Shown here: positions 27,825 through 31,853 of the stretch, one piece after another
Position numbering within the stretch: the first letter of the stretch is position 1
Layout: each line of letters starts with the position of its first letter
The notes under the pieces: model-generated
Databases searched by the model: none
What the model was told of the DNA's origin: nothing
The model's input: only the letters and a program-made list of their open reading frames with translations
NCBI GenBank assembly: GCA_018266075.1
Contig: JAFEBB010000038.1
Coordinates: 1-64,000, forward strand
Source: Deltaproteobacteria bacterium
Lineage (GTDB): Bacteria > Myxococcota > Myxococcia > Myxococcales > SZAS-1
Length of the DNA stretch: 64,000 nucleotides
Direction: 5' to 3'
Position numbers and translations under genes: made by a program

Positions 27825-29219
27825 CTACCCGGCCTTGAGCCCGTAGCGCTTCATCTTGCGCCACAGGGTCGTGGGGCTCACGTCGAGCCGGCGCGCGACC
27901 TCGCCCAGATCGCCGCCGGTCGATCGAATCGCCGCGTCGATGGCCACGCGCTCCGCGGCCTCGACCGTATCCGCCAACGATCCCCGCTCGACGATCTCCG
28001 CCACGCTGGCAGCCGTCGGCGCGCTGCCCGGATCGCGCGGCGGCCGCAGGGGGAAGTCACCCGGCCCGAGCTCCTCGCCATCGGCCAGCGCCGCGGCCTG
28101 CTCCACCGCGTTCTCCAGCTCGCGGACGTTGCCAGGGAAGTCGTGGGTCGTCAGGCGCTCCATCGCCGCCGGCGAGAGCCGACGAGGCTGCCCGGTGCGC
28201 GCGCGGTAGCGGGAGAGGAAGTGCTCGGCCAGCAGCGGGATGTCGTCGCGGCGCTCGCGCAGCGCGGGCACGCGCAGGGTCACGACGGCGAGTCGATAGA
28301 AGAGGTCCTGCCGGAAGCGCTTGTCGGCCACGGCGCGCTCGAGATCCTGGTTGGTCGCAGCGACCACACGAACGTCGACGGGCACCGGCGAGCTCTCGCC
28401 CACGCGCCGCACTTCGCCTTCCTGCAGCACGCGCAAGAGCTTCGACTGGAACGCCTGGCCGGTCTCGCTCACCTCGTCCATGAAGAGCGTGCCGCCGTGG
28501 GCCTCTTCGAAGAGGCCGCGCCGCGCGCGCACCGCGCCGGTGAAGCTGCCCTTGGCGTGGCCGAAGAGCTCGCTCTCCAGCAGGGTCTCGCTGATGGCCG
28601 CGCAGTTCACGGGAACGAAAGGCCGCTCCGCGCGCCGGCTCGCGGCGTGAATGGCGCGGGCCACGAGCTCCTTGCCGGTGCCGCTCTCGCCCTGCACGAG
28701 CACGGTCACGTCGCTCGGGGCCACGCGGACGATCTTTCCCACGAGCTCGCGCATCGCGCTCGAGCGACCGACCAGCGCCGACAGGCCGTGCCGCTGGGAG
28801 AAGTCCGCGGCCAGCAGCGCGGACTCCGTCATCAGCTGCTGGCGCTCGCTCGCGCGCTCCACGCGCAGGAGGAGCTCTTCTTCCTTGAACGGCTTGGTGA
28901 CGTAATCGAACGCTCCGAGCCGCATGGCCTCGACCGCGCTCTCGATGGTGCCGTACGCGGTCATCACCACGACCTGCGGGCTCGGCTTGAGCTCCATCAG
29001 CCGCTTGAGGAGCGCCAGGCCGTCGACGGGCTCCATGCGCAGGTCGGTGAGCACCACGTCCACCGGCTCGGCGGAGATGGCGGAGAGCGCCTCCTCGGCG
29101 CCGGACGCCTCGCGCGTGGCATAGCCCGCGCTGCGAAGCAGCATGGCGGTGGTGGCGCGCATGTTCTTCTGGTCGTCGACGACCAGCACGCGGACCTTGC
29201 TCGGATCAGGCGAGATCAT
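27825..29219 (-). CDS. sigma-54-dependent response regulator (NtrC family)
   Basis: REC (VLVVDDQ…VLTDLRM), AAA+ Walker A GESGTGKE, the σ54-contact motif GSFTGA (GAFTGA-like), arginine fingers, and a C-terminal Fis-type HTH. Confidence 0.9.
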   Translation of the reverse strand: MISPDPSKVRVLVVDDQKNMRATTAMLLRSAGYATREASGAEEALSAISAEPVDVVLTDLRMEPVDGLALLKRLMELKPSPQVVVMTAYGTIESAVEAMRLGAFDYVTKPFKEEELLLRVERASERQQLMTESALLAADFSQRHGLSALVGRSSAMRELVGKIVRVAPSDVTVLVQGESGTGKELVARAIHAASRRAERPFVPVNCAAISETLLESELFGHAKGSFTGAVRARRGLFEEAHGGTLFMDEVSETGQAFQSKLLRVLQEGEVRRVGESSPVPVDVRVVAATNQDLERAVADKRFRQDLFYRLAVVTLRVPALRERRDDIPLLAEHFLSRYRARTGQPRRLSPAAMERLTTHDFPGNVRELENAVEQAAALADGEELGPGDFPLRPPRDPGSAPTAASVAEIVERGSLADTVEAAERVAIDAAIRSTGGDLGEVARRLDVSPTTLWRKMKRYGLKAG

Positions 29220-29237
29220 GAAGTCGCTCAGTGCTCT

Positions 29238-31181
29238 CTACGTCTGGCCGCCGCGGAGGACGCGCTTGTCGCCGACCCGCAAGGTTACACGTTCGGCGTC
29301 GAAGTATTCCCCCAGAGGAACGGTCCATTTGCGGGTCTGTCCCACGAGGTCTTTGAAGGCCTGGATGTCCATCTCCCGGTGCGCCTGAAGGTACTCCACC
29401 AGGCGGCCCTTGAGGGAAGCGATGGCCTGGGAATCGAAGTACATGTCGTCTTTCACACGAATCGCTTGCCCCCCTGCTCGAAGAAGCTTGAGGGCCTCGA
29501 CCACCTGGTTGGCGGGCGCACGGAGCGACTCGACGAGCTCCGGCACGCGCGGCGGCGCGAGGCCGGCCTTGGCGAGCGCGTCCCGAATCTGTTGAACGAG
29601 GGGGCTGGCGTCGGCGCCGGTGGAAGGCTTTCCACCCGGCCGACGGACGACGTCGCCGTCGAGCTCGGCCTTCTTCGCTTCGACCAGCGCCTCGAGGACC
29701 TTGCCGAAGAGCTTGACCGGCAGCGCGTCGGCGAGCCCCGTGCGCAGCGCCTCGCGCGAGAGCCCGGGCGCGAGCGGGTGCGCCTTGGCGAAGGCGTCGA
29801 GCGCGTCCTCCGCGCGCCCAGTCAAAGCCGCGAAGTGCTCGGCGGCGATGCCCGCGCGCTCGGCGCGATCGAAGAGCAGGATCGAATTCTTGGTCGACAG
29901 CTGAGCCAGCGCCTTCTCCGCGGCCTTGGGCCCGAGCGCGAGCCGGCCCGCGAGCGCGTCGAGCCTGGCGCCGCCAAAGCCCGCGTCCTGCCAGAGCGCG
30001 AGCAGCCGCGCCTCCGGAGCTCCCTCGCGCAGCGTCTCCACCTGCTTGGCGGCGTCGGCCTTCTTGTGGCGATGCCGGCGCGGGTGCGGATCGAGCACCA
30101 CGCCGCCCCCGACGGTGCGACCGCGTCCAGGCACCGGAGAGAACCCGCGCAGGATGAAGCGCTGGCCGTGCAGCGCCGCGACCTCGTCGCCGAGCGTGAG
30201 CTGCACGGGTGCGCGCTCACCGGGCTCGAGCTCTTTACGATCGAGGAGCGTCACCGTGGCCGGGACCGCCGCTGTTCCAAGATGGAGCAGCGCCTTGCCG
30301 CGCGTCTTGAGCGCGCGCGGCGCGTTGCCGAGCAATTCCAGGTCGACGTCGAGGATTCGCGTGGGCTGCAGGCTGTTCGCGGTCGCCAGCGCCATGCCGC
30401 GCTTCACGTCGGTGGTCTCGATGCCGACCAGGTTCACGGCCGCGCGCATTCCGGCCTGAAGCTGCGTCGCGGCCTTGCCGTAGGCCTGCACGCCGCGCAC
30501 GCGAAGGCCCTTGGGTCCACCCGGAACAAGGTCGACCGCCTCGTCCGGCGCGAGCGAGCCGGTGAGCAGCGTGCCGGTGACCACGGTGCCGAAGCCCTTC
30601 ACGGTGAACGCGCGATCCAGCGGCAGATACGCAGGTCCATCCGCGGGCCGCTCGACGATCGTCGACGCCAACTTGGCGAGCTCGGCCTTGAGCGCGTCGA
30701 GCCCTTCGCCGGTTCGAGACGAGACGCCCACCATCGGCGCGCCCTCGAGGAACGTGCCCTTGAGCGCCTCCTTCAAGTCGCTCTTGGCCATGTCCACCAG
30801 CTCGTCGCCGAGCGTGGGCGCGAGATCCATCTTGGTGATGGCCACCAGCCCGCGCTGCACGCCGAGCAGCTTGCAGATGTCCAGGTGCTCGCGCGTCTGG
30901 GGCATCACGCCTTCGTCGAGGGCGACCACCAGCACCACGAGGTCCAACCCGAACGCGCCCGCGGCCATGGCCTTCACGAACTTCTCGTGGCCAGGAACGT
31001 CGACGACGCCCGCGATCGTTCCGTCGGGCAGCGCCAGGTGCGCGAACCCGAGCTCGATGGTGATGCCGCGCTTCTTCTCTTCGACGAGCCTGTCGGTGTC
31101 GATGCCGGTGAGCGCCTTCACCAGCGAGGTCTTGCCGTGGTCGACGTGCCCGGCCGTCCCCAGGACGATGCGGCGCCCCAC
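29238..31181 (-). CDS. selB: selenocysteine-specific translation elongation factor SelB
   Basis: GTPase G1 GHVDHGKT, DxPGH (VDVPGHEKF), G4 NKxD-like TKMD. SelB-specific domains II–III and a winged-helix C-terminal extension. Confidence 0.9.
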
Positions 31182-31184
31182 GGC

Positions 31185-31853
31185 TCAGCGCTCCTCGTCC
31201 GGCGGCGGCTCGCTGACCGTCGGCCCGGCGAAGAAGTCGTAGTCCCAGGGGAAGACGAGCAGGTCGTCGGTCTGCATGGCGAAGAAGTCGGGCCTGTAAC
31301 CTTTTTGTTTCACCGCGAGCGTGGCTGTCTTCACCTCGGCGGCGCCGACGCGCTTGGCGAGCTTGGTGGCCAGCTCCAGCGTGTCGCCCGAGGCAGCCAC
31401 GTCGTCCACGATGAGCACCCGCAGGCCACGCAGCTCGCGAGGCATGGTGCCGAAGGCCTTGGGCTCGGTGCGGACGATGTGATCGCGCGAGCGCCGCGAG
31501 ATGCGCACCGGGTAGAAGTCGCGCTTGAGGGCCGCGGCCACCACGCCGCCCACGAAGACGCCGCCCTTGGCCACGCCCACCACAGCCTCCGGCTCCCAGT
31601 CCGAAGCCAGGCCACGCGCGAGCTCCAGCGCGAGCGCGTCGAACGACTTCCAGGAGAGCTCGCGAACGGCCTGTCCGGGAGCGCTGGAGCTGTCGTCGGT
31701 CGGCATCGGCGGAAGGCCGCCGGGCACGGTCACCGGTCGGCTCGGCCGCGACGGCGGACGCACGCCGCTCCCGGTCACGGGCCGCGGATAGCTGCCGCTG
31801 GGCGGTCGCACCGCGGGGGTACCGGCAGCTGGGGTGGGCGTGCGCTTGGCCAT
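31185..31853 (-). CDS. phosphoribosyltransferase (type I PRT fold) with Pro-rich N-terminus
   Basis: PRPP-binding motif [14 protein letters not shown]. The start is taken at MAKRTP, 1 nt after the stop of the upstream OMP gene. The track ORF's first 75 codons are antisense overlap. Confidence 0.6.

Follow-up and report, generated by a model that had tools for sequence, protein, structure and literature searches.

The selenocysteine elongation factor gene selB of an uncultured member of the class Myxococcia (GenBank assembly GCA_018266075.1, lineage SZAS-1) lies on contig JAFEBB010000038.1, within the 64,000-nucleotide (nt) stretch of DNA that was analyzed here and that we refer to as the window. 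On the minus strand of this stretch, selB is embedded in a tight string of five genes, which run from asd through a gene for a 347-amino-acid (aa) protein and a phosphoribosyltransferase (PRTase) gene to selB itself and a gene for a σ54-dependent response regulator (Table 1). We found that the selB-regulator pair recurs at all 11 Myxococcia loci compared, and we treat the regulator as an ortholog of PxrR (also called Nla19 or SpdR) of Myxococcus xanthus, the partner kinase and small RNA (sRNA) genes of which were not detected in the window. The whole locus therefore reads as an inherited string of the Myxococcia that has been trimmed in this lineage.

The junctions of the string could be read directly. 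From asd, its first gene, there are 8 nt to the 347-aa gene, the stop codon of which lies 1 nt ahead of the ATG of the PRTase gene; the PRTase and selB genes meet at TGA-GCC-GTG, with 3 nt between them, and the stop codon of selB (TAG) is separated by 18 nt from the ATG of the regulator gene. An earlier note on this DNA had described the last three genes as lying 1 to 18 nt apart on the minus strand. Their coordinates, strand and tight spacing stand, while the gaps are really 3 and 18 nt, the 1-nt gap belonging to the junction between the 347-aa and PRTase genes and thus lying outside the three genes named. The identities given there also were borne out, by matches to PF00156 for the PRTase, to TIGR00475 for SelB, and to Response_reg, Sigma54_activat and HTH_8 for the regulator. 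The window has a G+C content of ca. 70%, and since the minus-strand frames have a third-position GC of 0.88 to 0.92, together with their family matches, we take them to be real genes; a 1,429-aa plus-strand open reading frame (ORF) spanning the same region was dismissed as a high-GC artifact. The PRTase, selB and regulator genes share one reading frame, with TGA plus one codon and TAG plus six codons between them. This is treated here as a probable coincidence, as the frame relation varies at two related loci (L001 and L089), and read-through of the in-frame PRTase-TGA-selB junction was rejected for the same reason.

Table 1. Features of the selB string in the window (position 1 is the first nucleotide of the stretch)
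Feature	Position	Strand	Matches and remarks
asd (aspartate-semialdehyde dehydrogenase)	32907..33929	-	NCBIfam NF011456, 511 bits; TIGR01296, 490 bits; Pfam Semialdhyde_dh, Semialdhyde_dhC
347-aa protein, lineage specific	31855..32898	-	No Pfam or NCBIfam match
PRTase, small type I purine phosphoribosyltransferase (Gpt-like, predicted)	31185..31853	-	222 aa from ATG at 31853; PF00156, 2.9e-19
selB	29238..31181	-	647 aa, GTG start; TIGR00475, Pfam
σ54-dependent response regulator (REC, AAA+, HTH_8)	27825..29219	-	464 aa, ATG start; Pfam
Spacer, regulator stop to convergent receiver gene	27581..27824	.	244 nt; position of pxr in Myxococcaceae
Single-domain response regulator receiver, convergent, closes the string	27194..27580	+	PF00072, 8.3e-26

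The selB gene looks intact. Its product scores 302.6 bits against TIGR00475 (curated equivalog cutoff, 242.25), residues 5 to 643 matching positions 1 to 580 of the 581 in the model, and it contains the Pfam domains GTP_EFTU, GTP_EFTU_D2, Beta-barrel_SelB, SelB-wing_2 and SelB-wing_3. Residues 6 to 644 align end to end with residues 2 to 607 of Escherichia coli SelB (Protein Data Bank [PDB] entry 5lzb), the C-terminal winged helix included, and the motifs DRAFTVKG and AGxRxAxN are aligned as well, with IDRAFTVKG in the E. coli protein and with AGMRAAVN in the window protein standing opposite AGQRIALN. The aminoacyl pocket of E. coli SelB is lined, as we take it from solved structures, by Asp180 and Arg181 (of DRAF) and by Arg236; the residues D189, R190 and R246 of the window protein are unchanged across 18 Myxococcia SelBs, and all of the G motifs are kept. 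Because the ratio of nonsynonymous to synonymous substitution rates (dN/dS) of selB is 0.23 to 0.38 against four relatives, and because the pocket residues and the winged helix are conserved, we consider the gene to be maintained. The closest homologs of this SelB are metagenomic proteins (93 to 66% identity), and the named ones, from Anaeromyxobacter, Archangium and Myxococcus, are ca. 55% identical (53 to 56% for the Archangium, Hyalangium and Anaeromyxobacter proteins).

At all 11 Myxococcia loci, which include those of Anaeromyxobacter, Archangium, Hyalangium, M. macrosporus and M. xanthus, selB is followed by the σ54 regulator gene, and at 9 of the 11 it is preceded by the PRTase gene; the order common to these loci is PRTase-selB-(PAS/GAF histidine kinase)-σ54 regulator. 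Among ca. 75 SelB loci from outside the class, three of them from other Myxococcota, neither the PRTase nor a full-length ortholog of the regulator was found. The layout of the window is repeated exactly at L001 (SelB identity, 77%), from asd through the unknown protein, PRTase, selB and regulator genes to the convergent receiver gene. Other close relatives have parts of it: selB-regulator at L002 and L003 (80%), asd-selB-regulator at L088 (66%), with asd immediately 5′ of selB, and unknown protein-PRTase-selB-PAS/GAF kinase (1,007 aa)-regulator at L087 (72%). Anaeromyxobacter sp. Fw109-5 (CP000769; L004) has Hsp33-PRTase-selB-kinase-regulator, with a kinase of 1,519 aa (six GAF matches) and with stop/start overlaps of 4 to 8 nt, and the same order is found in Archangium and Hyalangium. 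A Myxococcus metagenome-assembled genome (MAG), M. macrosporus and M. xanthus have Hsp33-GDH-PRTase-selB-kinase-regulator; on the M. xanthus chromosome, selB (638 aa), the PAS/GAF kinase gene (830 aa) and nla19 are joined by 4-nt overlaps and are followed by a GNAT gene and the nuo genes. At the six kinase-bearing loci, the kinase stop always overlaps the regulator start; at five of them the selB stop and the kinase start share 4 nt, and at the sixth (L087) the kinase start lies 167 nt downstream. Where the kinase is missing, the gap between selB and the regulator gene is 18 to 51 nt. We conclude that the locus is a string inherited within the class Myxococcia, with the order (hslO)-PRTase-selB-(pxrK)-pxrR-(pxr sRNA), and that it is trimmed in the window.

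At the closest long relative (L002:1-9997), ca. 20 short ORFs, a resolvase gene and a tRNA-Trp gene replace the PRTase gene and the genes upstream of it, and this region may be a mobile element inserted just ahead of selB.

This conservation also bears on transcription. The earlier note had suggested that the PRTase, selB and regulator genes are cotranscribed, and the gaps of 3 and 18 nt, the start/stop overlaps in relatives and the retention of selB-regulator at 11 of 11 loci all favor this suggestion; judged from spacing and conservation, the three genes are very probably transcribed together. Promoter and terminator scans of the string were uninformative in DNA of 70% GC.

The regulator has the Pfam domains Response_reg, Sigma54_activat (3.1e-71), AAA_lid_14 and HTH_8, and its sequence (100% identical to MBS2030613.1) contains the acid pocket of the REC domain (DD15-16), D59 in the context VLTDLRM and the Walker A motif GESGTGK; in the σ54 contact loop it has GSFTGA instead of GAFTGA. 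Over its full length, it is 62 to 67% identical to the regulators encoded upstream of Pxr at L006, L007 and L089, compared to 44% identity to an unrelated enhancer-binding protein (EBP). The regulator at L090 (M. macrosporus) falls into one 90%-identity cluster with “Nla19 [Myxococcus xanthus DK 1622].” Given this difference in identity and the same position behind selB, the window regulator is treated as a putative PxrR/Nla19/SpdR ortholog. In M. xanthus, the regulator is documented as the activator of pxr (PMC10217877; PMC5568312). This sRNA gene is flanked by nla19 (Mxan_1078) and a gene for NADH dehydrogenase and is provided with a σ54 promoter of its own (PMC5568312), and Pxr synthesis needs both pxrK (MXAN_1077, spdS) and pxrR (MXAN_1078, spdR, nla19) (PMC10217877; PMC5684412). 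Consistent with this arrangement, Pxr (Rfam RF01812) was detected directly 3′ of the regulator gene at L006, L007, L089 and L090, with scores of 91 to 129 bits (gathering score, 80). σ54-type sites of the form TGGCACG-N4-CTGCT are found 170 to 340 nt past the regulator stop in Archangium, Hyalangium and the Myxococcus MAG; the site is ca. 25 nt 5′ of Pxr at L006, L007 and L089 and can be aligned in the M. xanthus and M. macrosporus loci. Similarly, the position of the GNAT gene at L089 to L091 matches that of pxrA (MXAN_1079), which encodes a GNAT acetyltransferase (PMC11928866).

In the Archangium sp. MAG (L006:16041-17000), there are four copies of the σ54-type promoter behind the regulator gene, at a period of 326 nt, the first of which is followed by the Pxr match of 91 bits, and these repeats agree with the tandem pxr paralogs reported for Cystobacter (PMC5568312). 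Given the Hsp33 gene that lies 5′ in relatives, we also considered the HsfB/HsfA heat shock phosphorelay as a counterpart of the kinase/regulator pair. We discarded it because both the locus (mxan_5362-5365) and the domain architecture differ, HsfB being a hybrid kinase with a receiver at its N terminus and the kinases found here being of the PAS/GAF-HisKA-HATPase type.

Set beside the selB-pxrK-pxrR-pxr locus of M. xanthus, the window thus has the PRTase gene, selB and the REC/σ54-AAA+/HTH regulator gene in the same order and on the same strand. However, the window lacks pxrK, pxr with its σ54 promoter, the Hsp33 and GDH genes on the 5′ side, and pxrA and nuo on the 3′ side; instead, it has asd and the unknown protein 5′ and the convergent receiver gene 3′. 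In tblastn searches with three kinases, no PxrK-type kinase was found in the 64 kb at an E value below 1e-3. The kinase is missing also from L001, L002 and L088 and is kept at L087, and the simplest reading would be a single loss of pxrK within the uncultured clade to which the window belongs. The RF01812 model found no pxr in the window, either at the gathering threshold or at E values up to 10, the only low-threshold Rfam match near the spacer being a chance small nucleolar RNA match inside a neighboring gene. Nor was the apex motif of Pxr SL1 seen above chance in the window, and in its folding the spacer itself did not stand out from shuffled sequence (z score, +0.34). No σ54-type site with an intact GG/GC was present in positions 27000 to 35500, spacer included, and window-wide σ54-type sites with at most 2 mismatches numbered 19, compared to 23 expected by chance. 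The enhancer-like motif GTGAAAAAG, which was derived from the region 5′ of pxr, was neither enriched nor paired in the window. In relatives this spacer is not constant; it is reduced to 9 nt at L001, and at L088 the downstream gene overlaps the end of the regulator gene. Since pxrK is gone, and since pxr, a σ54 promoter and the enhancer-like site were not detected nearby, we regard the window regulator as an orphan, with no kinase gene between it and selB.

Anaeromyxobacter sp. Fw109-5 has the PRTase-selB-regulator order of the window but, unlike the window, keeps the 1,519-aa kinase gene, a near-consensus σ54 promoter and a hairpin similar to Pxr SL1 behind the regulator gene. The promoter (TGGCACTGAAGTTGCT) lies 156 nt past the pxrR ortholog (L004:18097-18205) and is followed by an 81-nt hairpin with a U tract (-47.7 kcal/mol; z score, -5.97), the apex of which (GAAGGAGGUCCCCCCCC) matches that of Pxr SL1. 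Promoter and SL1 can both be aligned to pxr from five Myxococcaceae/Archangiaceae loci, and the hairpin is not detected by the Rfam Pxr model. One possibility is that it is a Pxr relative consisting of SL1 only, in a genus that does not form fruiting bodies.

Apart from selB, the window yielded no gene of the selenocysteine pathway, as the earlier note had observed. ARAGORN found no tRNA of any kind in the 64 kb, tRNA-Sec included (the same tool detected tRNA-Sec at 8 control loci), and an Rfam scan of the window gave no match. A tblastn search with Anaeromyxobacter dehalogenans SelA gave a best E value of 0.75 in the window (as a control, selA was found at 18 loci), and SelA, AIRS (SelD) and molybdopterin/formate dehydrogenase (FDH) domains were absent from all of the window ORFs scanned. 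A scan for in-frame TGA codons, with coding signal required on both sides, returned five sites, none of which was retained as a selenoprotein: three fall at ordinary gene junctions, a fourth is on the strand opposite a real gene, and the fifth comes after a FIST gene that is complete. This last gene (FIST_N/FIST_C, 59479-60696, plus strand) ends with the TGA at 60694, after which ca. 75 in-frame codons of equally high third-position GC run to 60930; the segment 60694-60930 (plus strand) is probably a small separate gene with a GTG start and not part of a selenoprotein.

The earlier note had started from the premise that selB in characterized systems usually clusters with selA/selC or a formate dehydrogenase gene. 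As regards selA/selC, this premise fails in our survey of 80 species-level loci, which were those reference-genome loci that best matched a myxobacterial SelB profile and hence form a biased sample. Within the available flanks, selA was found at 18 of the 80 loci, or at 13 of the 52 that had 3 kb or more on each side, and tRNA-Sec at 8 of the 60 loci scanned (57 of the 80-locus set plus three from Myxococcia), mostly in Firmicutes. In total, selA and/or selC adjoin selB at 16 to 18 of the 80 species loci, again mostly in Firmicutes, which shows that an unlinked selB is common and occurs in many phyla. The classical selAB and selA-selB-selC clusters of E. coli, Pseudomonadales and Clostridia encode a SelB of the same family and with the same domain set as the window protein; they differ in that selA or selC adjoins selB, which has neither alongside it in the window. 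Within 10 kb, no selenoprotein gene, selA, selD or tRNA-Sec was found at any of the 11 Myxococcia loci. For A. dehalogenans, which belongs to one of these genera, SelA, SelB, SelD and 11 selenoproteins are listed by Zhang et al. (2006; PMC1794560), and in Anaeromyxobacter sp. Fw109-5, where the locus is laid out as in the relatives of the window, there is no selA within 10 kb of selB. The earlier note had held that its case would shrink to an incidental adjacency given a complete sel operon elsewhere and independent transcription of the three genes, and Anaeromyxobacter comes close to this situation, for a relative and not for the genome of the window itself.

The PRTase appears to be a type I purine phosphoribosyltransferase of the Gpt-like kind. 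Its phosphoribosyl pyrophosphate (PRPP)-binding motif is unchanged in eight orthologs, and a profile built from these matched the purine PRTase of PDB entry 1vdm (6.5e-26) and also Sulfolobus GpT-1 and GpT-2 (4trb and 4z1o), although against the NCBIfam equivalogs the protein stays under every cutoff. The core aligned with these small archaeal-type enzymes spans ca. 140 residues and shares their PRPP loop; unlike them, the myxobacterial proteins have a variable, basic or proline-rich N-terminal extension. In the window protein the extension is proline rich, and in its orthologs it is variable and of low complexity; it is probably disordered, and the exact start of the protein is uncertain. Family, profile and motif comparisons indicated no connection of this PRTase with selenium. 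The 347-aa protein encoded upstream has homologs at the matching position of L001 (47% identity) and L087 (37%), and from its C terminus (...AGYRFEL) it may be an outer membrane β-barrel protein. Its position is held by Hsp33 in the Myxococcaceae and Anaeromyxobacter, but the two proteins are unrelated, and a reading as a divergent Hsp33 was ruled out (BLASTP E value of 0.049, over 30 residues only).

Several other genes of the window, all away from the string, deserve mention. On the minus strand, positions 15418-16317 encode a diadenylate cyclase (DAC domain) with a DacZ_P sensor domain, and positions 17147-19399 encode a 750-aa protein resembling the major vault protein (MVP), with a Major Vault Protein shoulder domain (7.7e-33) and vault repeat domains. 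At 23208-25346, two overlapping ORFs of ca. 680 to 710 aa, one on each strand, both have coding-like GC patterns and no family match. Beyond the string, at 35988-39008 (minus strand), there is a DUF1549/DUF1553 (PSCyt2/PSD1) and DUF1501 gene pair, followed by a DJ-1/ThiJ-like gene, with strand and frame as in the genes downstream.

Taken together, we put the probability at roughly three in four that the locus is a trimmed, inherited Myxococcia string with an ordinary SelB and an orphan PxrR ortholog that have no functional tie to each other. Under this explanation, the selB product would be an ordinary, functional selenocysteine elongation factor, and selA, selC, selD and the selenoprotein genes would lie elsewhere in the genome, as they seemingly do in Anaeromyxobacter. 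The M. xanthus regulator PxrR has the PAS/GAF kinase PxrK as its partner and is reported to be needed for Pxr sRNA synthesis; the gene for this sRNA lies just downstream with a predicted σ54 promoter. In the lineage of the window, pxrK would have been deleted cleanly, with 18 nt remaining between selB and the regulator gene. The orphan regulator most probably is still transcribed together with selB from an upstream promoter; it probably is phosphorylated by an unlinked kinase and would act on σ54 promoters elsewhere in the genome. Several points weigh against this explanation. The PxrR orthology was assigned from synteny and identity rather than from a complete tree of the EBPs, of which myxobacteria have many, spacing and conservation are the sole grounds for cotranscription, and it is by inference that selA, selC, selD and the selenoprotein genes of this organism are placed elsewhere. 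The role of PxrR has been described for M. xanthus and not for nonfruiting lineages. Moreover, the adjacency of selB and the regulator gene outlasts the loss of the kinase, PRTase or Hsp33 genes, which could point to a functional tie after all.

One alternative is that the genes are neighbors that have simply never been separated, each with its own promoter and with nothing in common, transcription included. The functions concerned (purine salvage, translation and transcriptional control) are indeed unrelated, and the flanks differ by lineage, with Hsp33 or asd on the 5′ side and pxr, GNAT or the convergent REC gene on the 3′ side, so the region as a whole is not frozen. However, the window gaps of 1 to 18 nt leave promoters little space, starts and stops overlap by 4 to 8 nt between selB and the kinase gene (5 of the 6 kinase-bearing loci) and between the kinase and regulator genes (6 of 6), and the gene order has been kept at 53% SelB identity despite the reshuffled surroundings; we therefore regard chance adjacency as unlikely. 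In a further reading, the genome would have given up selenocysteine decoding, and SelB itself would be a paralog that is decaying or has been put to another use. This would account for 64 kb without selA, selD, selC or a selenoprotein gene, and SelB does evolve faster than the regulator (67 to 80% versus 79 to 87% identity in the same genome pairs). This reading is nevertheless very hard to credit, given a score that exceeds the curated equivalog cutoff, the retention of the G motifs, of the DRAF and Arg pocket residues and of the RNA-binding winged helix, a dN/dS far from 1, and the fact that most of the loci sampled have an unlinked selB.

The earlier note had instead read the linkage as a hint that selenoprotein synthesis is coupled to σ54 signaling: the regulator would sense a signal and switch on sel or selenoprotein genes at their σ54 promoters, and an operon with selB would keep the two in step. 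There is a precedent for this idea in E. coli, where the selenoprotein gene fdhF has a σ54 promoter that is activated by FhlA, likewise a σ54 EBP tied to selenoprotein biology. FhlA, however, has no receiver domain, senses formate and targets the fdhF and hyc promoters, whereas the window has no FDH gene and no σ54 promoter at the string, and its regulator scores 264 bits against an FhlA model cutoff of 830. The constancy of the selB-regulator pair at 11 of 11 loci, even where the kinase, PRTase or Hsp33 gene has been lost, would fit such a coupling, as would the fact that the literature searched gives neither the signal of PxrK nor a PxrR regulon beyond pxr. Nonetheless, nothing beyond adjacency supports the proposal here, and the only role demonstrated for the ortholog is in pxr sRNA synthesis (PMC10217877; PMC5684412). 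Besides selB, none of the 11 loci has a sel or selenoprotein gene within 10 kb, no σ54-type promoter lies in or around the string, and the linkage is limited to one class while SelB is widespread. We consider the coupling to be decidedly improbable. A related, and in our view equally doubtful, speculation is that the pairing of selB with SpdS/SpdR (PxrK/PxrR) is functional in a broader sense, with an ancestral tie to SelB dosage and to selenium, redox or translational status. In that case, Pxr would have come under the control of this two-component system later, and in kinase-less lineages the orphan regulator would continue to monitor or govern the decoding of selenocysteine.

On the favored explanation of a trimmed inherited string, the result is a deflationary one: the seemingly odd σ54 neighbor of selB would be orthologous to a regulator of development that has been well studied, and a selB gene standing apart from other sel genes is normal in many phyla. 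The same comparison, however, places pxrK and pxrR behind selB in Myxococcia, M. xanthus included; judging from the overlap of selB with the kinase gene, the system that controls Pxr seems to have its expression linked to the selB transcript. In the literature searched, we found no mention of MXAN_1076 or of a linkage of the pxr locus to selB. The type of locus is known from M. xanthus, and the window adds to it a variant from an uncultured lineage that has neither the kinase nor a detectable pxr gene. With pxrR present, pxrK lost and no pxr found in 64 kb, this lineage would offer a natural case in which to study the role of the regulator before, or without, the Pxr checkpoint.

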